From Bacillota bacterium (GTDB taxonomy: Bacteria > Bacillota > SHA-98 > UBA4971): DNA of 64,000 nt. Position numbers and translations under genes: made by a program. The DNA is taken from positions 102,093-166,092 of the forward strand of contig JAAYXB010000027.1 of assembly GCA_012516125.1 (NCBI GenBank), given 5' to 3'. Under the pieces are notes generated by a model. That model was not told where the DNA came from, did no database searches, and was given only the letters and a program-made list of their open reading frames with translations. Shown one piece after another: positions 15,554-61,881 of the stretch. Numbering within the stretch: position 1 is the stretch's first letter; each line of letters begins with the position of its first letter.

Positions 15554-15790
15554 CTGAAACCATTCTCAAAAGTCGGGAGCGTCTTCGTACGGGACTGTTG
15601 AACTCCGCCAGCAGCTACCCGTTTAGCCCGGCACGGCGACGGTTTTGGGCGATTCGGCCCGGTCATCGTGACACGATGTGGGAACCATCAACAGTCTCTT
15701 ACTCCCGTACTTACTGCTGTGCTACACAGGCAAAGGAACCTGGAAGACGTCACCAAACCGGGAAATCGGCGCAGACTGGTGCTCCCACGC

Positions 15791-16612
15791 TTAGAACCCC
15801 GCCTGGCCAAGCCACGGGAACACGAGACGCAGTACCCAGGTCCCCGAGATACACACGATGATCGCTCCCGCCGCAATGAAAGGCCCGAACGGGATCTCGT
15901 CCTTCCTCTTCTTAAGGCCTGCGACGATCAGCCCGATCCCGACCGCCGCGCCGATGAAGCACGCGACCATGAACGACGCAAGCCCGCCCCACGGCCCGAG
16001 AAAGCTCCCCACGAGCGCCATCAGCTTGACATCTCCGCCGCCCATGCCCCCGCGGCTCAAGAGGGCGATGAGGAACACAAGCCCTCCGCAGGCAAAAAGT
16101 CCAACGATGCGCATCGTAACCTCGCGGAGGCCCCCGAGCGCCCCTGCCGCCACGCCCACCGCCATCCAGGGAAGCGTAAGCCTGTCGGGGATCACCCCAT
16201 GATTGAGATCGATCCCCGCCGCAACCACGACCAGGCTCGCCAGCACCAGGTAGTTCAGGGTCCAGACAGTGGCTCCGCGGCCTACCACGATCAAGAGAAA
16301 AATGAGCCCAACGCCGACCTCCATGGCAGGGTAAGAGATGGATATCTTCTTTCCACAGTGGCGACACCTGCCCCGGAGGAGCAGGTAACTCAGCACGGGC
16401 ACGAGCTCGAGCGGCCCGAGCGTGGTCCCGCATTCCGGACAGTGGGATCGCGGCGACACGACCGACTTCCCACGTGGGAGACGGCGAACACACACGGTGA
16501 GGAAGCTTGCCACGATTGTTCCCGCAAGAAACACTAGCAATGTTCCGATGGGCGACGTACCTCCATACGACAAAGGAACAGGGATTTCCCATTGCGCATG
16601 AGATGCTGCCAA
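15791..16612 (-). CDS. pilD: prepilin peptidase (A24 family)
   Basis: N-terminal CPECG...CRHCG zinc-finger motif followed by a polytopic peptidase domain (GGGDVKLMALVGSFLG). Track start is a TTG; true start uncertain. Confidence 0.85.
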   Translation of the reverse strand: MAASHAQWEIPVPLSYGGTSPIGTLLVFLAGTIVASFLTVCVRRLPRGKSVVSPRSHCPECGTTLGPLELVPVLSYLLLRGRCRHCGKKISISYPAMEVGVGLIFLLIVVGRGATVWTLNYLVLASLVVVAAGIDLNHGVIPDRLTLPWMAVGVAAGALGGLREVTMRIVGLFACGGLVFLIALLSRGGMGGGDVKLMALVGSFLGPWGGLASFMVACFIGAAVGIGLIVAGLKKRKDEIPFGPFIAAGAIIVCISGTWVLRLVFPWLGQAGF

Positions 16613-25559: not shown

Positions 25560-25947
25560 CAGGCGCCACGCCTCCCGCCCCTTATTCTACTACATAGCAT
25601 TTGCAGTTCACAAGTGCTTTTTGGCATGAATTGCCGTGTTGACCACGGCAAAGCCCTCCGGCATGTCCTCCCGGCCTGCGTAACAGGATGTTTGTCTGCG
25701 TCCCGCTGGACTCCGTGCTGGACGGTCTCTTACGCGCAAGTCCTTCGAACCAGATTCTGCGCGGGGTTGATCCCTGCAGGACCGGGTTCGCCCGCAACTT
25801 GGTCCCCGGGGAGATCACCGGTGTGCCCGCTGCCGGCGGGAGCGATGGGGCGGCTACCAGAGCGGGAGCGGCGGCAAAGAAAGCCCGCAATGCGAGGCTG
25901 CAAGTGGCATGGTGGCTATCTTATGCCCAGTCGAGGTACGCGCCGGG

Positions 25948-32389: not shown

Positions 32390-32506
32390 CGTAGAGAGAT
32401 TGCTCCCGACCTTTGGAAGGGGTTGCCGGTGACTCGAAGAGAGAGTTCAACACCGGCAACCCATCAGATGCTGACAAGCCGCGAGCAACTAACGAACCGT
32501 GGGTTA
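32390..32506 (+). repeat. MITE-like repeat, copy F (short variant)
   Basis: GATTGCTCCCGACCTTTGGAAGGGGTTGCCGGTGACTCGAAGAGAGAGTTCAACACCGGCAACCCATCAG...GGGTTAG is highly similar to copy E. The terminal TTAG overlaps the purB stop codon (32504-32506). Confidence 0.55.
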
Positions 32507-33796
32507 GACCCCGACCCGACGAAAGATATCGTCGATGTGGGCGAGGTGTCTCGAGAGGTCGAAACAAGCCTCTATATCGGTGGGCTTCAGCACGGCGGTG
32601 ATCTCGGGGTCGCCAGAGATGAGCTCCTTGAAGTTCAGCCCTTCGTCCCAGGCCCGGGCGGCGTTCCGCTGCACGAGCGCGTACGCGTGCTCACGGCTAA
32701 GCCCGCGCCCCACGAGGGCCAGCATCACAGCCTCGGAGAATACGAGGCCGCCCGTCATCTCGAGGTTGGCCTGCATTCTGTCCTTTCTTACAACGAGGCC
32801 CTCCATTACCTCGGCGAACTTCCGAAGCATGTAATCCATGAGGGTGGTCGCGTCGGGGAGCACGATCCTCTCAACAGAGGAGTTGCTGATGTCTCGCTCA
32901 TGCCACAGGGGCGTGTTTTCCATAGCAGCCATGGCGTACCCCCGCATCACTCTCGCGAGACCGGTGATCCGCTCTGAAACGATAGGATTGCGCTTGTGCG
33001 GCATGGCCGAGGACCCTTTCTGGCCCGGCCTGAACGGCTCCTGCACCTCGAATACCTCGGTGCGCTGGAGACCCCGTATCTCGGTGGCGAACTTCTCCAG
33101 GGAGCTGGCGATGATGGCGAGGGTGGTGACGTATTCTGCGTGGCGGTCGCGCGAGAGCACCTGGGTTGAGGCCTTCGCAGCCTCGAGCCCAAGCTTGCTG
33201 CATACATACTCCTCGACCCTCGGGTCCATGCTCGCATAGGTGCCGACGGCGCCCGAGATCCTGCCCACGCTCACCACCTCGCGTGCCCTCTGCATCCTCG
33301 CGAGATTGCGGCGCATCTCGGCGACCCAGACCGCCAGCTTGAGCCCGAAGGTGATAGGCTCGGCATGCACGCCGTGAGTCCTGCCGACCATGGGCGTGTT
33401 CTTGTATTCCCGAGCCTTCTCGGCAAGGACGTCGATGACCTTGCGGATGTCCCGAATGATTATGTCCGCGGCGTCCCGCAGGAGCAGCGAGAGGGCGGTA
33501 TCCACCACGTCGTACGACGTCATGCCCATGTGGATGTAGCGTGCCTCGGGGCCGACGTTCTCTGATACGTTCGTGAGGAACGCTATGACGTCGTGGTCGA
33601 CTATCGCCTCTATCTCGCGAATCCTCGCGATGTCGAACCGAGCCTTTTCCCTGATGGCCTCAACGGCGTCCGCCGGCACTCGCCCTATGCTCGCCCAGCC
33701 CTCGCAGGCCAGGATCTCGATCTCCAGCCATTTCCTGTAGCGGTTCTCTGGCTCCCAGAGTTGCTTCATCTCGGGATACGTGTAACGCTCTATCAT
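32504..33796 (-). CDS. purB: adenylosuccinate lyase
   Basis: MIERYTYPEMKQLWEPENRYRKWLEIEILACEGWA plus the fumarate-lyase signature region. Start at ATG near 33796 with GGAGG RBS. The ORF-track 49-aa N-terminal extension is artefact. Confidence 0.9.
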   Translation of the reverse strand: MIERYTYPEMKQLWEPENRYRKWLEIEILACEGWASIGRVPADAVEAIREKARFDIARIREIEAIVDHDVIAFLTNVSENVGPEARYIHMGMTSYDVVDTALSLLLRDAADIIIRDIRKVIDVLAEKAREYKNTPMVGRTHGVHAEPITFGLKLAVWVAEMRRNLARMQRAREVVSVGRISGAVGTYASMDPRVEEYVCSKLGLEAAKASTQVLSRDRHAEYVTTLAIIASSLEKFATEIRGLQRTEVFEVQEPFRPGQKGSSAMPHKRNPIVSERITGLARVMRGYAMAAMENTPLWHERDISNSSVERIVLPDATTLMDYMLRKFAEVMEGLVVRKDRMQANLEMTGGLVFSEAVMLALVGRGLSREHAYALVQRNAARAWDEGLNFKELISGDPEITAVLKPTDIEACFDLSRHLAHIDDIFRRVGV

Positions 33797-44051: not shown

Positions 44052-44253
44052 CTCAGTGAGGGTGCAGAAATGCTCCCGAGCTTTGGGAGGGGTTGCCGAT
44101 GATTGCACGAGGGGTGTCAAAATCCGGCTGCCTAGCCAGACGGGCCGGATTTTGGCGAAGCGCGCCCCGCTTGGGGCGCCGTCCCCGAGCGCAACACCGG
44201 CAACCCGGCAACTACTGGAAGAGGGGCGAGAACTAACGCACCCTTACTTCGAG
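44052..44253 (+). repeat. MITE-like structured repeat, copy A (long form)
   Basis: Begins CTCAGTGAGGGTGCA and ends GCACCCTTACTTCGAG (degenerate TIRs). Core TTTGGGAGGGGTTGCCGATGATTGCACGAGGGGTGTCAAAATCCGGCTGCCTAGCCAGACGGGCCGGATTTTGG...CAACACCGGCAACCCGGCAACTACTGGAAGAGGGGCGAG is about 90% identical to copy B. Confidence 0.75.
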
Positions 44254-44419: not shown

Positions 44420-44641
44420 ATGGCGGAGCCTCTGGCTGTAGGTGATTTCGTCACCAGGAAGTCTTATGATGGTGACGTCGTCTTCAAGGTCGTCGCCGTC
44501 GAGGGCGATAGCGTCCTGCTACGCGGCGTCCTGCTCAGGATCATGGCAGATGCCCCTACAAGCGACGTTGTGAAGGTCGAGCCGGAGCGTGCCCTCCTGG
44601 CACTGCGCTCTCTCGAACGCTTTGAAAGGAAAACAGGCTAA
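44420..44641 (+). CDS. small hypothetical protein (73 aa; possible SH3/KOW-like beta-barrel)
   Basis: Strong RBS GGAGGGAG 5 nt before the ATG. One of only four plus-strand genes in the window. Pattern VGDFVTRKSYDGDVVFKVVAVEGDSVLL resembles small Bacillus beta-barrel proteins (YkvS/DUF2187-like), from memory. Flanked by repeat copies A and B; its stop lies in the copy B TIR. Confidence 0.4.
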   Translation: MAEPLAVGDFVTRKSYDGDVVFKVVAVEGDSVLLRGVLLRIMADAPTSDVVKVEPERALLALRSLERFERKTG

Positions 44642-44835
44642 GTGGGGGTGCAAAAATGCTCCCGACTTTTGGGAGGGGTTGCCGGTGATTGCACGAGGGG
44701 TGTCAAAATCCGGCTGCCTAGCCGGACGGGCCGGATTTTGTCAAGACGCCCCGCTTGGGGCGCCGTCCCCGAGCGCAACACCGGCAACCCGGCAACTACT
44801 GGAAGAGGGGCGAGGACTAATGCACCTTCACTTAG
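44638..44835 (+). repeat. MITE-like structured repeat, copy B (long form)
   Basis: TIRs CTAAGTGGGGGTGCA...TGCACCTTCACTTAG. Internal nested inverted repeats: GGTTGCCGGTG/CACCGGCAACC, CAAAATCCGGC/GCCGGATTTTG and CGCCCC-GCTT-GGGGCG. The left TIR supplies the TAA stop of ORF 44420-44641. Confidence 0.8.
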
Positions 44836-45196: not shown

Positions 45197-45294
45197 GCGT
45201 TGGGTTGGAGGGCTCGCGACAGGGCGTGCGGGCAGGCACACAAAATCAGGTGACCCCCGGGAAACGGGCGACCTTTCCCGGGGGATTACCGAAT

Positions 45295-45382
45295 TAAGTG
45301 AAGGTGCACAAATGCATCCAACCCATGGGAGGGATCGCCGGTGACTCGGCCGGTGACCAGGACCTCACGCACCCTCACTTAG
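45295..45382 (+). repeat. MITE-like repeat, copy C (short, degenerate)
   Basis: TTAAGTGAAGGTGCAC ... GGGAGGGATCGCCGGTGACTCGGCCGGTGACC ... GCACCCTCACTTAG. Same TIRs with the internal region reduced to about 60 bp. Ends 21 bp before the stop of the lipoprotein gene. Confidence 0.6.
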
Positions 45383-45403: not shown

Positions 45404-46192
45404 CTACCGTGAGATCGCGAACTGCTTGCTCACGCCGTACGGGATGTAGAGCACCCACTTGAGGCCTTCGAGGGTCGGGTCAGCAGCGAAGTCCTTTGTG
45501 AACTTAGGGAAGATCAAGAACCCTCTTTTCCACGATCTCGCTGCCACCGGACCGTCGATATCATTCTTCACCGGGACCGGATAATAGTAGGTCTTTGCGA
45601 TCTTCGCGGTCTCAACAGTATAGTAGGCCTCGAGCTGAGGGTATATCGACACCTCGTGGTCGAGCGTGTTCTCTATCAGGATATCGAACTTGATTTCCGC
45701 GGGAAGCTCCAGAAGGGCGAGAACGGTCACGCGGACGCCGTCGACCTCGCAGGGTTCCTTGAACATGACCCCCGGAAGGAAGCTGTCCGAAGCCCATCCG
45801 CGCCCACGCCTGCCATCGTCCACTATAGACCATCTGCCGTCGCCGGACTTTTGCGCTTTCACGTACCTGACACCGAAGTTGCCGTCGCCGTCCTTGAACA
45901 CGACTTTCACAAGGTGGTAGTCGGCGAAGGTCGCGCTCTCGCAAGACACCAGGGCAGGAACGCCCGAGCGCTTCTCCCCCGTAGCGCTTGTGTATTCCAC
46001 CCAGGACCTTGCCGCACCTGCTGCAAGTTTAATGGCCTCGGAATACTCACCCGATTCCATCGCAGTCACGTAGCGCACCGCGAGTTCCTGTGCATCCTTC
46101 GCGTCGTCGGCAAGAGCGGGACACGCTCGAACCATGGCGAGAACCAGCGCCAGCAACGACAGCGCGAACAGAACGGGCAGCTTCTTTGACAT
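45404..46192 (-). CDS. secreted/lipoprotein of unknown function
   Basis: MSKKLPVLFALSLLALVLAMVRAC is a signal peptide with a possible lipobox Cys. About 260 aa mature protein, no recognised catalytic motif. Start at ATG 46192. Confidence 0.5.
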   Translation of the reverse strand: MSKKLPVLFALSLLALVLAMVRACPALADDAKDAQELAVRYVTAMESGEYSEAIKLAAGAARSWVEYTSATGEKRSGVPALVSCESATFADYHLVKVVFKDGDGNFGVRYVKAQKSGDGRWSIVDDGRRGRGWASDSFLPGVMFKEPCEVDGVRVTVLALLELPAEIKFDILIENTLDHEVSIYPQLEAYYTVETAKIAKTYYYPVPVKNDIDGPVAARSWKRGFLIFPKFTKDFAADPTLEGLKWVLYIPYGVSKQFAISR

Positions 46193-46270
46193 ACCGCTCC
46201 CTCCCCAGCGTCCCCACGGCACACCTGGTATGTTGCACTGTGAAACCCGGACGGCCCGGCAGGCATCTCG

Positions 46271-46626: not shown

Positions 46627-48876
<2,250 letters not shown>

Positions 48877-48880
<4 letters not shown>

Positions 48881-51206: not shown

Positions 51207-51406
51207 CCCAGCACCCGAAGGCTCTCGCACGCCAGAAACCTCCTCGTCCCGACTCGACCACATTATAGCAGAAAAGCCCCGCCGTATCCACAAGAGTCCA
51301 GAGCAACGCCACAAGGACTCCACGCCGCGGCGGCGTATAGTATGGACTAAGCGAAGGTGGGCGGTGGGCGGACGAGGGGCACCTCGGCCCGCCGGAAGGA
51401 GGACTT

Positions 51407-52298
51407 AGCTGTGGTACATTCGCCGACGATAGCTCTTATTCTGGCGCTTGCGATTCTCTCTACCGCAATACAGGGACAGGCGCGCGCATCGTCTCACGAA
51501 GGCTGGTTCGTACGTGGCGGGACGGTTGATGTGCGAGCCGAGCCTGCGGACGGCGCAGAGCGCGTCACCCAAGCTCACCTCGGCACAGAAGTCGTGGTCA
51601 TCGGTGAGGCGGACGATTGGGCGAAGGTGCGCATCCCAGTGCAGGGGAACTACCCTGGCTGGATAAGGAAGTCCGCTATCGTGCCGGCACGGGAAGCCGG
51701 AGCCTTCGCGAGCGCGAAGCAACTCGCAGTGGTGCGGGTCGCAAGAGCCCCCGTGTTTCGCAGCGAGCAGGGCGGCGAACCGGTGGTGGCCCAGGTTACT
51801 CTCGGCGCGCGCCTTGCCGTTCTCGGAAGGCGCGGCAGGCTTGTGCGGGTGGCCTTCCCCGGCGGCGAGTCCGGGTACATCGCCGAGGATGCTGTGGCCC
51901 TCTATGACAGGGACGGCACACCGCCGCGCCGGGGGGCGGACGACATCATCAAGACGGCAACGCAGCTTCTGGGGGTGCCATACCTCTGGGGCGGCATGAG
52001 CACTGACGGTGTGGACTGCTCCGGCTTCGTGTACACGGTGTTCTACGCCAACGGCATCGTGCTTCCGCGCGACGCTCACGAACAGTACACGGTCGGAACG
52101 CCTGTAGGTCGTGGGGACCTTCGCCCGGGCGACCTGGTGTTCTACTCCACATACGCTGCCGGAGCATCCCACGTGGGCATCTACATGGGCGAGCACAGGG
52201 TGATCCAGTCGGGGTCCAGGACACGCGGCGTCGCTGTCATCGATCTCGACGACCCACACTACGGCCCGAAGTACATCGGTGCGCGCCGGGTGCTGTAA
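51407..52298 (+). CDS. NlpC/P60 (C40) cell-wall peptidase with two SH3b-like domains
   Basis: Catalytic Cys (GVDCSGFVYTVFYANG) and His (SHVGIYMGEHRVIQS). Two SH3b-like repeats (WAKVRIPVQGNYPGWIRKSAI; VRVAFPGGESGYIAEDAV). GTG start at 51407 with GGAAGGAGGA 7 nt upstream; signal peptide. Confidence 0.75.
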
Positions 52299-52314
52299 CT
52301 CGCCGTGGAAACAC

Positions 52315-52514
52315 CTAAGTGAGGGTGCGTCAGGCCTTGTCCCTTTTCCAGTAGTTGCCGGGTTGCCGGTGTTGTACTCGGGCACGGCGCCCCAAGCGGG
52401 GCGCGCTTCGCCAAACTCCGGCCCGTCTGGCCAGCGGCCGGATCTTGACACCTCTTGTGCAATCGCCGGCAACCCCTCCCAAAAAACCGGAACCATTCTT
52501 GCACCCTCACTTAG
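52315..52514 (-). repeat. MITE-like structured repeat, copy D (long form, inverted orientation)
   Basis: Perfect 14-bp TIRs CTAAGTGAGGGTGC / GCACCCTCACTTAG. Its reverse complement aligns to copy B at about 85-90% identity. Sits between the convergent NlpC/P60 gene (stop 52298) and dgkA, whose stop (52511-52513) lies inside the TIR. Confidence 0.8.
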
Positions 52515-52894
52515 AGGAGGCGGAGGAGGGCGCGGGCCACGGGGACAAGTTTCGGCCCGAGGACCGCGGCACCCACGACGGTCGCCCACGCGGCGCTTAC
52601 AAGCACAGTTCCCGCGGCTATGTCCTTCACGGTCTTGACCCGAATTTCCCAGGTAGGGCAGGCTATATCACAGATGAGTTCGAGGGCGGTGTTGGCAAGC
52701 TCGCAGATGAGGACGAGGGCGATGGCAAGGGCGAGGCACGCAAGCTCGACCATCGATACCCCGAGGGCGCCCGCGGCCGCCAGCACAGAGGCGGCCGCGA
52801 TGAAATGAATGCGCATGTTGCGCTCGGTGGAGAGCACAGCCTTCACGCCCTGCACAGCGCAGCGAAAGCTCTCTCCGAGCGACCTGGTCTTCAC
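52511..52894 (-). CDS. dgkA: diacylglycerol/undecaprenol kinase
   Basis: DgkA three-TM fold (ESFRCAVQGVKAVLSTERNMRIHF..ELANTALELICD). Stop codon inside the TIR of repeat copy D. Confidence 0.8.
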   Translation of the reverse strand: MKTRSLGESFRCAVQGVKAVLSTERNMRIHFIAAASVLAAAGALGVSMVELACLALAIALVLICELANTALELICDIACPTWEIRVKTVKDIAAGTVLVSAAWATVVGAAVLGPKLVPVARALLRLL

Positions 52895-58333: not shown

Positions 58334-58457
58334 CTTCGTGAGGGCGCAAAGATGCTCGCGACTTTGGGAGGGGTTGCCGGTGACTCAAAGAGAGAGTGCA
58401 ACACCGGCAACCCAGCAACTACTGGAAAACGGACAAGAACCGGCGTACCTTAACTTA
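58334..58457 (+). repeat. MITE-like repeat, copy E (short variant)
   Basis: CTTCGTGAGGGCGCA...GACTTTGGGAGGGGTTGCCGGTGACTCAAAGAGAGAGTGCAACACCGGCAACCCAGCAACTACTGGAAAACGGACAAG...CCTTAACTTAC. The long middle hairpin is replaced by a short ACTC...GAGT stem. The end supplies the stop of the hypothetical gene 58455-59066. Confidence 0.65.
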
Positions 58458-59066
58458 CAGCCGGATTCTGCGTCTGAGGGCACGGGGAGGGCCCAGCACC
58501 TCAGCCAGCACCACCGCACGCATGAGCTCCTCAGGCCCGAGTTCGCCGATGATGTCCGTGGCGGCCCGCGTGTCAGGCAGGTCGTACCGCCCCCGGCGTT
58601 CCTCGGTCGATGCGCTGACGCGACGCCGTGAAGGCGCGGAGGGGCGGCCCAGTCCCGTGTCCGTTGCCCATTCCCCAGCCTCCGCCCATTCCAGGCTGAG
58701 GCCTTCTTCAGAGAACCACTCCTCGGTCGAGCGCCGACGCCCTCTACGCCCGCGTGTCTCCTCAGGGGGCCGCTGGTACACCGGGTGCGCCGCGGCCGAC
58801 CCCTCGGGAGCCGGAGGTTCCGGACGGCCTTCGAGGGTGCGACCGGGCTGCACCGTCATATCGTCCCGGGCCTCGGACGCCACCGGGCCCTCAGCGGGGC
58901 TCGCCGGCACGCCCGCGCCGGTCCCTGTCCCGGGCGCCTCCGACGGTGGTATCCGGGGCCATGGGGCGCCCGCGCCCCTGGTCCTTCCCTGGCGCCCCTT
59001 TGAGACGGCCGCTATGGCCACGGCAACCATATAGAGCAGAAACAGAAGCCCGAAAATGGCATCCAT
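58455..59066 (-). CDS. hypothetical membrane-anchored, Pro/Arg/Glu-rich disordered protein (yqfB position)
   Basis: ATG immediately after the floA stop (TGATGATCTGATG), suggesting coupling. One N-terminal TM (MDAIFGLLFLLYMVAVAIAAV), then a low-complexity region. No similarity to B. subtilis YqfB that I recognise. Confidence 0.4.
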   Translation of the reverse strand: MDAIFGLLFLLYMVAVAIAAVSKGRQGRTRGAGAPWPRIPPSEAPGTGTGAGVPASPAEGPVASEARDDMTVQPGRTLEGRPEPPAPEGSAAAHPVYQRPPEETRGRRGRRRSTEEWFSEEGLSLEWAEAGEWATDTGLGRPSAPSRRRVSASTEERRGRYDLPDTRAATDIIGELGPEELMRAVVLAEVLGPPRALRRRIRL

Positions 59067-59073
59067 CAGATCA

Positions 59074-60093
59074 TCACTTCTTCTTCTCGTCTTCAGCGGG
59101 CGGCTCATCAACGGGCTCCCGCGGTTCGCTGACACCTGCTATAGACTGTCTCATGCGCGTGTCGGCCAGCACGTTCTGCAACTGGTAGTAGTCGAGGACC
59201 CCAAGCTTGCCCGAGCGGAGCGCCTCCGCAAGCGCCTTCGGGACCTCGGCCTCCGCCTGGACCACCCTCGCGCGCATCTCCTGAACCTGCGCTTTCATTT
59301 CCTGCTCTCGCGCAAGCGCTGCGAACCTCCGCTCGGCAGCCTTCGCCTGTGCGATGTTCTTGTCGGCCTCGGCCTGGTCCATCTGCAGTTGCGCGCCGAT
59401 GTTCCTTCCGACGTCCACATCGGCTATGTCGATGGAAAGTATCTCGAAGGCGGTGCCTGCGTCGAGACCTTTGCTCAGCACGGTGCGGGAGATCTTGTCG
59501 GGGTTCTCCAGCACCTCCTTGTGGCTCTCAGCCGAGCCCACGGTTGTCACCACGCCTTCGCCGACCCTCGCGATGATGGTGGCCTCACCCGCGCCGCCGA
59601 CGAGCCTGTCGATGTTGGCGCGCACCGTCACCCGGGCCTTGGCCTTGAGCTCAATGCCGTCCTTCGCGACCGCAGCCACCACGGGCGTCTCGATCACCTT
59701 CGGGTTCACGCTCATCTGAACGGCCTCCAGAACGTTTCTGCCCGCAAGGTCTATGGCGCACGCCCGCTCGAACGACAGATTGATCTCCGCCCGCTGGGCC
59801 GCGATGAGCGCGTCAACCACACGGTCGACGTTGCCTCCGGCAAGGAAGTGCGCCTCCAGCTTGTCCACGCTCACTTGAAGGCCGGCCTTCACCGCCTTGA
59901 TAAGCGGCAGGATGATCCGCCCCGGTGGAACCCGGCGCAAGCGCATCCCCACTAAGGTGAAGATGCCCACGTGCACCCCGGCTGCCCACGCGGATACCCA
60001 GAGGCCCACCGGCACGAAGTTCAGCAGGATGAGCAGACCGACGATGATAAGGACAGGCAGGATCAAGAACGCGTATACCGCTCCCATTTCCAT
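59074..60093 (-). CDS. floA: flotillin-like protein FloA (SPFH domain)
   Basis: Aligns throughout with B. subtilis FloA/YqfA ([70 protein letters not shown]). ATG 60093 with GGGAGG RBS. Confidence 0.85.
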
Positions 60094-60150: not shown

Positions 60151-61494
60151 TCAGCCGCGCCGCTCACTTTCCTCCTGGACGCGCACCACGAGGCGCGCCC
60201 CCGCGACGTCCACGACTTCCACGACAGCGTCCTTCGGAATGAAATCCCCCTCTGACACCGCGTCGAGCCTTGCGCCGTCGACTAGTATGGTGCCGCTCGG
60301 TCGCATTACGGTCAGAGTCCTTCCTAGCCGGCCCAGGTAAGCCTGACGCTCGGGCGTCGCGACGTAACCTTCGCGGGCTGCTTCGCTCGTTCTCAGAATG
60401 AGCCGTCCGATGGCGGGCGACCTCCCGAGGTACTTGAACGCCGTTGCAACGATGAACGCCGTGACTACGATGGAGAATGAGATCACGAACGCGGCCTCGC
60501 GCAGATCCCTGAAGCTCAAGACGAGCGAGGCGAATATGGCGACGATCCCGCCGATGCCTGCGACGCCGAATCCGGGTATGAGGAAGGCCTCTACCATGAG
60601 CAGGATGAAGCCCAGGATGAACAGGCCCACGACCTCCCACCCCGCGATGCCCGCGATCATCCTGCCGCCGAAAAAGAGCGCGAGCGCGACTAATCCGGCC
60701 GTGCCAGGCACTCCCCACCCAGGCGAGGTGACCTCGAATAGGAGCCCCAGGAAGCCTATGATGAGAAGTATCGAGCTTACGGTCGGCTCCGTCAGGAAGC
60801 GGGCGACCTTCTCAGCCCAGTTTTGCCGCACCTCCACGAGCTCCGCGTCGGCGAACCCGAACTTGCGTAGCACCTCCCCCCTGGTGCCCGCCACGAGATC
60901 GGCGAGCCCAAGCTCCTTCGCTTTGTGCGCCGTAAGGGTGAGGAGCTTGCCCTGTCCTATGAGACCCTCTATGACTATACCGGCATCGACCATAGCCGCG
61001 GCGACCCTGGGGTCACGTCCTCTGGCCTCGGCAGTCGCCTCGAACTCGCCGCGTAGCGCGGAGACGGCCTTTTCCTCCTTCGGGATGGTCTCGGCCGCCC
61101 CGATGCTTGCGCCGGGAGCCATCGCGATCTTCTCCGCGGCGAGCGTGACCAGCGCCCCCGCCGACCATGCCCTCCCTTTAACGAAAGCCACGGAAGGCAC
61201 CCCAAGGTCGAAAATGAGATCGCGTATCTCGGTGGCGGCATCAACACGGCCTCCGAAGGTATCGACCTCGATCAGGACGCATGCGGCCCGGGCGTCCCGA
61301 GCGGCTTCGAACCCTCTCTTCAGGTACGCCGCAAGGCCCGGCTCGATAGGTCCCTCCACGCTGAGCACGTATACCATCTTGTCTTCCGGAGCCTGCTGCG
61401 AGCATACGCTGCCCGCCGCAAGCGTAAGCGCAAACCCGCCCACTAGCGCCAGGGCGAGAAGAATCACGGCGATTCGCTGGGATGGGCGCCTCAT
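60151..61494 (-). CDS. nfeD: NfeD family membrane-bound ClpP-class serine protease
   Basis: ClpP/crotonase-fold N-domain (YVLSVEGPIEPGLAAYLKRGFE...IEVDTFGGRVDAA), TM helices and a C-terminal OB-fold. Partner of floA. ATG 61494 with GAGGGG RBS. Confidence 0.8.
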   Translation of the reverse strand: MRRPSQRIAVILLALALVGGFALTLAAGSVCSQQAPEDKMVYVLSVEGPIEPGLAAYLKRGFEAARDARAACVLIEVDTFGGRVDAATEIRDLIFDLGVPSVAFVKGRAWSAGALVTLAAEKIAMAPGASIGAAETIPKEEKAVSALRGEFEATAEARGRDPRVAAAMVDAGIVIEGLIGQGKLLTLTAHKAKELGLADLVAGTRGEVLRKFGFADAELVEVRQNWAEKVARFLTEPTVSSILLIIGFLGLLFEVTSPGWGVPGTAGLVALALFFGGRMIAGIAGWEVVGLFILGFILLMVEAFLIPGFGVAGIGGIVAIFASLVLSFRDLREAAFVISFSIVVTAFIVATAFKYLGRSPAIGRLILRTSEAAREGYVATPERQAYLGRLGRTLTVMRPSGTILVDGARLDAVSEGDFIPKDAVVEVVDVAGARLVVRVQEESERRG

Positions 61495-61538
61495 TTCAAC
61501 CCCTCGCTCTACTCCGGCCCGGTGGCCTGGCTTCCGGC

Positions 61539-61584
61539 GCACAGCGAATGATGCCCGACGAGAGTCGGGCATCATTCGCTGTGC
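61539..61584 (-). terminator. 21-bp perfect-stem hairpin immediately downstream of rpsU (putative terminator or processing element, no U-tract)
   Basis: GCACAGCGAATGATGCCCGAC-GAGA-GTCGGGCATCATTCGCTGTGC begins 6 nt after the rpsU stop. The following RNA is GC-rich, so intrinsic-terminator function is uncertain. Confidence 0.4.
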
Positions 61585-61589
61585 CAAGG

Positions 61590-61769
61590 CTAGTATCGGA
61601 ACCTGCGCTTGCGCGCGGCCTCAGACTTCTTCTTCCGCCGCACGCTCGGCTTCTCGTAATGCTCGTGCTTCCGAAGTTCAGCGAAAACTCCCGACTTCTG
61701 GCACTCCCGCTTGAACCTGCGGAGCGCGCTATCGAGGGATTCGTTTTTTCCGACACGTACCTCCGACAT
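61590..61769 (-). CDS. rpsU: 30S ribosomal protein S21
   Basis: [60 protein letters not shown] 61769 with GGAGGGAGGGAG RBS. Confidence 0.85.
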
Positions 61770-61881
61770 CCGATCTCCCTCCCTCCGCAACCACGATCTT
61801 TACCCGACGGTGCTGCGACTTGAGGCAGCCAGCTGTGGTGGCGGAGACCAGTCGGGCACTCGCCGAAAAGACCTACGCGAG

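Follow-up and report, generated by a model that had tools for sequence, protein, structure and literature searches.

A non-coding MITE in the 64-kb stretch of Bacillota DNA analyzed here (hereafter the window) targets the TA within CTAG and duplicates it, and where the CTAG includes the TAG stop codon of a gene, the stop is converted in place to TAA without altering the protein. The whole explanation, in which a MITE inserting in CTAG with TA duplication rebuilds TAG stops as TAA and an IS630/Tc1-mariner-type enzyme acts in trans, is one to which we assign a probability of about 0.88. The hallmark of IS630/Tc1-mariner transposases is duplication of TA by strand transfer with a 2-bp stagger, and we propose that a transposase of this type (DDE) would mobilize the element in trans. 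Insertion is into the TA of CTAG, which is duplicated; the junction, C-TA-A, turns a TAG stop into TAA at the same position and leaves the protein intact. Insertions within coding sequence would presumably be removed by purifying selection, and those at stop codons and in intergenic positions would persist in proportion to the available sites. The behavior of the element is a direct consequence of known target specificity and involves no new mechanism. The resulting rule is that a TA-duplicating, CTAG-targeting element with A-first ends sits exactly on TAG stops, which become TAA with no change in the protein.

A family of short repeats with A-first ends

The repeat is non-coding, and alignment of its copies reveals two size classes of ∼192 bp and ∼120 bp, with ∼85 central bases of the full-length form swapped for ∼10 in the short form. 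The element proper begins at AGTGAGGGTGC, and the same 11-nt perfect terminal inverted repeat is present at both ends. BLAST and repeat finding identified six copies in the window. Copy D (52315 to 52514, plus strand), defined by its sequence, the copy alignment, and inverted-repeat matches, is full length and illustrates the organization: a C (52315) and TA (52316 to 52317) precede the 194-bp element (52318 to 52511), which is followed by TA (52512 to 52513) and G (52514), with perfect matches to AGTGAGGGTGC at 52318 to 52328 and 52501 to 52511; the inverted repeat is kept across copies. Copy B (44638 to 44835, minus strand) is also full length, with C at 44638, TA at 44639 to 44640, a 192-bp element at 44641 to 44832, TA at 44833 to 44834, and G at 44835; it is polymorphic, with empty-site alleles on two other contigs (see below).

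The remaining four copies are also on the minus strand. Copy A (44052 to 44251) is full length and intergenic, and is flanked by direct TC...TC rather than TA, with CTCG as its target. Copy C (45294 to 45382) is an intergenic, internally deleted form of 89 bp with flanks T-TA...TA-G. Copy E (58334 to 58458) is a short form of 125 bp with a gene-side end of G-TA-AGTT and a degenerate other end, and copy F (32390 to 32507) is short and degenerate with a purB-side junction of C-TA-ACCCACGG and an approximate left boundary. The original prediction, made from the sequence alone, placed repeat ends on the stop codons of four window genes (a 73-aa open reading frame [ORF], dgkA, a 218-aa gene, and purB), and all of the coordinates check out. 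Two neighboring genes that it described as ending close to a copy also do so: a 272-aa gene (45404 to 46222) has its stop 21 nt past the end of copy C, and a gene coding for NlpC/P60 and SH3 domains (51357 to 52298, plus strand; identified by Pfam and sequence), which is convergent with dgkA, ends at 52298, 16 nt before the flanking C of copy D (52315), and is untouched by the element.

Both ends of the element have A as their first base (AGTG), such that every junction reads C-TA-A. Two of the three reading frames are closed within 7 nt of entering the element, by TAA at offset 0 and by TGA at offset +4 (GTGA), and thus only a single frame is able to read into it. The inverted repeat had been described as containing CTAAG/CTTAG; this sequence is present at the ends, but its C-TA and TA-G belong to the target and not to the inverted repeat. 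The element folds as a single long hairpin of −95 to −100 kcal/mol (z = −4.7 and −6.1). Rfam searches gave no match at the gathering threshold across the whole window, and none at an E value of ≤1 for positions 52250 to 52560; the window contains no tRNA genes.

We note a possible, very degenerate seventh copy at 15560 to 15793 (minus strand) on another stop codon. The gene at 15791 to 16612 ends TTC TAA, followed by GCGTGGGAGC (three mismatches to the inverted repeat), and GCTCCCGACTTTTG, a motif that the MITE also has, is found ∼200 nt downstream.

Empty and filled alleles of the insertion site

The original prediction proposed a search for empty-site alleles, and these were found, one at the allele level (copy B) and one at the species level (copy D). 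For copy B, two contigs from biogas-fermenter assemblies (L119 and L121) have the uninterrupted site AACAGG-CTAG-GACCGC, and the window and a further contig (L120) have the filled site. The empty allele is GAAAACAGG-C-TAG-GACCGCAAG and the filled allele is GAAAACAGG-C-TA-(element AGTGGGGG...CTTCACT)-TA-G-GACCGCAAG, a net gain of 194 bp that corresponds to the 192-bp element plus one duplicated TA within CTAG. Without the insertion the 73-aa gene stops at TAG, and with it at TAA, at an unchanged position. In L119 and L121 the next gene begins 38 bp after the 73-aa gene; in L120 the element is there, as in the window. An alternative arrangement, in which copies A and B form a composite transposon around the 73-aa ORF, was rejected, as only copy B is missing in L119 and L121, and copies A and C are present. 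The species-level empty site for copy D is in GCA_002441185.1 (L246), whose dgkA is 80% identical; the convergent order of dgkA and the NlpC/P60 gene is kept with 12 bp between them, and dgkA ends CTT TAG after 127 codons.

The same target is evident across the family. C is found at position −1 in 64 of 73 element ends and TA in 58 of 73, with nothing conserved further out, and 19 of the 33 complete copies have a perfect CTA...TAG; nearly all copies have the form C-TA-AGTGAGGGTGC...GCACCCTCACT-TA-G, with no direct repeat beyond. The flanks of copy A, which are direct and non-palindromic (TC...TC), support a 2-bp target duplication, and they have the look of an occasional off-target duplication of this size. 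Two old short copies (L042:7735-7859 and L053:4590-4714) are flanked by CCA...TGG or CAA...TGG rather than CTA...TAG; these changes are inverted and not direct, and the 2-bp duplication model needs two mutations there.

CTAG targeting accounts for the frequency of stop-codon insertions

The distribution of insertions was examined in 43 copies within 243 kb from four related Bacillota genomes, comprising the six window copies and ∼37 copies in 8-kb blocks of three related Bacillota metagenome-assembled genomes (MAGs). Genes in the MAG blocks were called with a codon-usage caller that we built and trained on long ORFs, with MITE masking and start trimming. In 14 of the 43 copies a gene stops at the junction TA plus the first A of the element; placement at random would give 0.04 such copies, and placement at random TA dinucleotides 0.9 (P = 2e-13). 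The coincidence of element ends with stop codons is thus far in excess of chance in the 243-kb sample. Two further genes stop at the TGA four bases into the element and two at 47 bases, and the remaining copies are intergenic. Of the 19 genes extending to the end of an element, 14 terminate at offset 0, where frame alone would give one-third (P = 4e-4).

No palindromic tetranucleotide is rarer in this sample than CTAG, with 133 occurrences versus 819 expected (0.16-fold), 37 of them in the 64-kb window. In the same 243 kb, GATC, TCGA, and CATG all reach or exceed their expected counts, and TAG still accounts for ∼30% of stops. Because CTAG is rare and never in frame inside genes, many of the CTAGs at which insertion is harmless are the stops of genes ending ...C TAG; about one in three harmless CTAG sites is a stop codon, and TAG is present on both strands of CTAG. 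Outside of elements there are 74 free CTAGs in coding sequence, 32 in intergenic sequence, and 16 at stops, and the occupied sites number ∼5, 24, and 14, respectively. Coding CTAGs are strongly depleted among the occupied sites (∼5 versus 74 free; P = 1e-8), whereas stop and intergenic sites are occupied alike (14:24 occupied versus 16:32 free; Fisher P = 0.82); the MAG blocks were picked for carrying the element, which inflates the occupancy fractions, but the stop-versus-intergenic comparison should be less affected. A model in which insertions are distributed over harmless CTAGs predicts 13.3 stop-codon copies, close to the 14 observed. As the split between stop and intergenic positions is indistinguishable for occupied and free sites, the data require no additional attraction toward gene ends. 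Preferential insertion at the 3′ ends of genes, as suggested in the original prediction, is therefore an accurate description but not the cause, which is the choice of CTAG as a target.

One consequence is that transposon junctions make up a noticeable share of TAA stops in these genomes, with 4 of the 18 TAA stops in the window and 13 of the 50 in the sampled 243 kb formed by the MITE.

A sister family and recurrent occupation of the same stop codons

A scan with an internal 16-mer against one genome per species found many copies in the uncultured Bacillota MAG-64 (JACIXY01), and copies also in Yes71-24 (JASEJE01) and MAG107 (JBLNDE01). A contig binned as 'Betaproteobacteria MAG135' (L026; JBLNCC010000017.1) carries both a full-length copy of the family (family 1) and a copy of a sister family; this contig shares its project with the Bacillota MAG107, and mis-binning is probable. 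The sister family has the core GGGTTGCCGGTGTTGC...GGGGACGGCGC in common with family 1, but has different ends (TA-[A/G]GTAGATCGCC... and TA-[A/G]GTAGATCGCCAYAAGT...), which likewise yield stops at offsets 0 and +4. Sister-family loci are at L008:1-176 and 1230-1450, L016:50-341, L026:1451-1673, L117:3790-3900, L243:2104-2300, and L247:1201-1400. Both families are found in uncultured high-GC Bacillota from biogas-type metagenomes, where the copy B insertion is still polymorphic. The MITE also fragments the assemblies of its host organism: the short-read contigs L001, L002, L003, and L240 break inside the element or at its boundary, with L001 to L003 breaking inside copy D.

Several of the stop codons occupied in the window adjoin a different insertion in relatives. 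The dgkA stop in MAG107 (L008) adjoins a sister element with the core in the opposite orientation. The stop of the 218-aa gene adjoins three different elements: an oppositely oriented family-1 copy in L244 (an 87% identical ortholog; CTC TGA GTGAGGGTGCAGAAG) and sister-family copies in L243 and L247. In L117, purB ends GTC TAG with a sister-family end following directly, and the 93% identical ortholog in L116 ends ATC TGA with no element. This repeated occupation appears to reflect independent insertions at the few CTAG sites available, with a small probability left for an inversion or for an ancient insertion shared by descent.

It is conceivable, although we consider it doubtful, that the A-first ends are an adaptation of this MITE lineage and its sister family to TAG stops as safe sites, driving recurrent TAG-to-TAA turnover and perhaps also providing RNA hairpins at 3′ ends. 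If this were so, the stop codons reoccupied across lineages would reflect more than a shortage of sites. We regard as unlikely a related explanation, in which a function such as termination or mRNA stabilization draws the element to the 3′ ends of genes or favors its retention there, so that the overlap with stop codons would reflect function and not target sequence. The very stable hairpin (−95 to −100 kcal/mol) would suit such a role, as would the finding that, across lineages, the same stops carry oppositely oriented or sister-family copies (L008, L244, L243, L247, and L117), but inverted-repeat ends give a stable hairpin in any element of this kind, and repeated hits are expected when CTAG sites are scarce. 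Moreover, CTAGs at stops are no more occupied than intergenic ones (P = 0.82), copy D lacks a terminator-like hairpin with a T-tract, and copy B has one weak five-pair site (44659 to 44675, minus strand), with the number of such sites in that region within the range for shuffled sequences. Scans with terminator and promoter consensus sequences similarly gave nothing above shuffled-sequence expectation, and there is no match to an Rfam family.

Genes flanked by the element keep their native C-termini

The original prediction raised the possibility that the last residues and stop codons of the flanked genes are derived from the element and are merely tolerated. We consider this very unlikely as a general account. 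All four window genes have native C-termini, and identical C-termini and stop positions are found in the absence of the element, the outcome that the original prediction had named as a refutation; for these four genes the possibility is refuted. The 73-aa ORF (44420 to 44641, plus strand) stops at the TAA at 44639 to 44641 (context C-TAA-GTG), and its protein sequence is identical on filled and empty contigs. This ORF resembles the N-terminal part of YabG (Pfam Peptidase_U57, residues 7 to 58 only) and covers just the first ∼57 of 280 positions of the YabG peptidase (U57) profile. It is conserved as a separate small gene on several contigs, whether or not the element is present, and its short length is therefore not due to the MITE.

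The other three genes behave similarly. The TAA of dgkA (127 aa; 52511 to 52894, minus strand; Pfam DAGK_prokar) is composed of the duplicated TA at 52512 to 52513 and the last base of the element at 52511; its homologues are 127 aa in the eight closest (68 to 99% identity) and in three more distant sequences, and the C-terminal regions of the eight align. The 82% identical dgkA ortholog in L004 was considered as evidence for the ancestral state, but it ends in TGA with other downstream genes, and is uninformative. For the 218-aa hypothetical gene (58455 to 59111, minus strand), which has homologs and is also called on a JGI contig (L118), the TAA (58455 to 58457) consists of the junction TA and the terminal base of the element (context ACT-TA-C), and the protein end, ...LGPPRALRRRIRL (...RRRIRL), is conserved in homologs down to 51% identity. 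The TAA of purB (430 aa; 32504 to 33796, minus strand) lies at 32504 to 32506 on the copy F junction; its Pfam domains Lyase_1 and ADSL_C are complete to the end, and its C-terminus (...DDIFRRVGV) aligns with those of 430-aa orthologs ending ...FRRVGI/V/L. The length of 479 aa given for purB in the ORF list reflects an upstream GTG start.

This pattern extends to the related MAGs, where 9 of the 10 stop-junction genes tested have Pfam domains that run through to their ends. Examples are CdAMP_rec (1 to 109 of 109, ending at the last residue) and ATP-synt_A (1 to 216 of 217), and the nine of ten also include thioredoxin-reductase-like, FliD, ComEA-like HHH, AzlD, and beta-eliminating lyase proteins. 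The preponderance of offset-0 stops (14 of 19 versus one-third) likewise argues against replacement.

There are nonetheless four bona fide genes in MAG-64 that do run into the element and acquire 1 to 16 element-encoded residues, and for these genes in related genomes the predicted element-derived C-termini are borne out. A GcvPB-like gene (L042:1621-3093) and a glycerate-kinase-like gene (L042:6351-7742) each stop at the TGA four bases in and gain one residue (..A-K-stop), and a BcrAD_BadFG ATPase gene (L024:794-1606) and an ABC ATPase gene (L070:7156-7986) each stop 47 bases in and gain ∼16 residues. When the flanks of the GcvPB-like gene are joined, the sequence suggests that the original frame ran 15 codons further prior to insertion, as would be expected of a replaced C-terminus. 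Element-derived tails thus exist, but they are a minority and none are in the window; for annotation purposes, C-termini at stop-codon junctions should not be read as chimeric.

Relationship to known elements

The element shares with the IS630/Tc1-mariner group the use and duplication of a TA target, the CTAG preference (as for IS630), and short terminal inverted repeats; it differs in being non-coding (∼192 or 120 bp), and our searches recovered no transposase of its own. The AGTG ends generate TAA at both junctions. Tc1-type ends begin with CAGT, for which the junction would read TAC.

A full-length IS with matching inverted repeats that encodes a DDE (DD34-35E/D) transposase did not emerge from our searches: inverted-repeat pairs at IS spacing are absent from the window and the fetched MAG blocks, a scan of 120 metagenome loci with the 14-mer CTAAGTGAGGGTGC gave mostly chance matches and a few more MITE copies but no IS, and BLAST against plasmids and phages found no match to the element or to a parent IS. 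We therefore describe the element as one that works like an IS630-type MITE, whose membership in the family is putative on one defining feature, a cognate transposase. The MITE family and its sister family appear to be undescribed, and the family has no Rfam, plasmid, or phage match.

The target behavior has close precedents. ISY100, a member of the IS630 family, duplicates TA in vitro, with 2 of 39 insertions at AA/TT and not TA (PMC2170065), and the TC flanks of copy A are comparable to these occasional non-TA targets. IS630 of Shigella sonnei prefers the TA in 5′-CTAG-3′, as summarized in the same paper (PMC2170065, citing Tenzen et al. 1990 and Tenzen & Ohtsubo 1991). Among MITEs, RUP of Streptococcus pneumoniae and the Correia/NEMIS elements of Neisseria are similarly small, with inverted-repeat ends and TA duplication; they occur in tens of dispersed copies and fall into size subfamilies distinguished by an internal segment, and RUP and Correia are IS630-associated (PMC2229807). 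They have no sequence similarity to the element described here, the host of which is an uncultured high-GC Bacillota lineage, and CTAG targeting linked to stop-codon replacement is not described for them in the literature that we examined.

The QMITE1 and QMITE2 elements of Coxiella burnetii extend 1 to 50 bp into the 3′ ends of functional genes and sometimes supply C-terminal residues (PMC5896051), and both the exact-stop and the read-in cases reported here have counterparts among them. However, those overlaps were reported descriptively and without a target-site explanation, and the families are unrelated in sequence. The least credible alternative, to which we give almost no weight, is an IS5-type element with a CTAG/YTAA or TNA target and a 3- to 4-bp duplication, such as the IS5-related MITEPsy1 of Pseudomonas syringae; MITEPsy1 has the CTAG/YTAA target in common with our element, and GAGGGTG in the inverted repeat is similar to the end of ISPsy19 (PMC3189936), but MITEPsy1 duplicates 4 nt and the element here 2 nt, the filled copy B allele reads CTA-A...T-TAG and not CTAG...CTAG, the gain of 194 bp is 192 plus 2, and the copy B junction sequences permit no 3- or 4-bp direct repeat, which excludes an IS5/PIF-like duplication of either size.

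Other sequence features

A BLAST search with flanking sequences among the retrieved loci for further empty sites returned just one 95-bp match, between L111 and positions 25749 to 25843 of the window, which is not an orthologous locus. The ∼95-nt intergenic segment concerned (minus strand in the window) is 82% identical to L111:4038-4131 (Yes71-24), although the flanking genes are non-orthologous. It has no Rfam match even at an E value of ≤1; a small RNA that has escaped annotation, a leader, or a further repeat are all possible identities. At 61539 to 61584, near the junction of the genes at 60151 to 61587 and 61590 to 61790, there is a perfect 21-bp inverted repeat (GCACAGCGAATGATGCCCGAC / GTCGGGCATCATTCGCTGTGC) whose loop is 4 nt. 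Finally, imperfect hexanucleotide repeats (CTCGCC / CTTCAC) at 48554 to 48623, within the gene at 47792 to 48880, probably represent a low-complexity Gly/Glu-rich segment of the protein.
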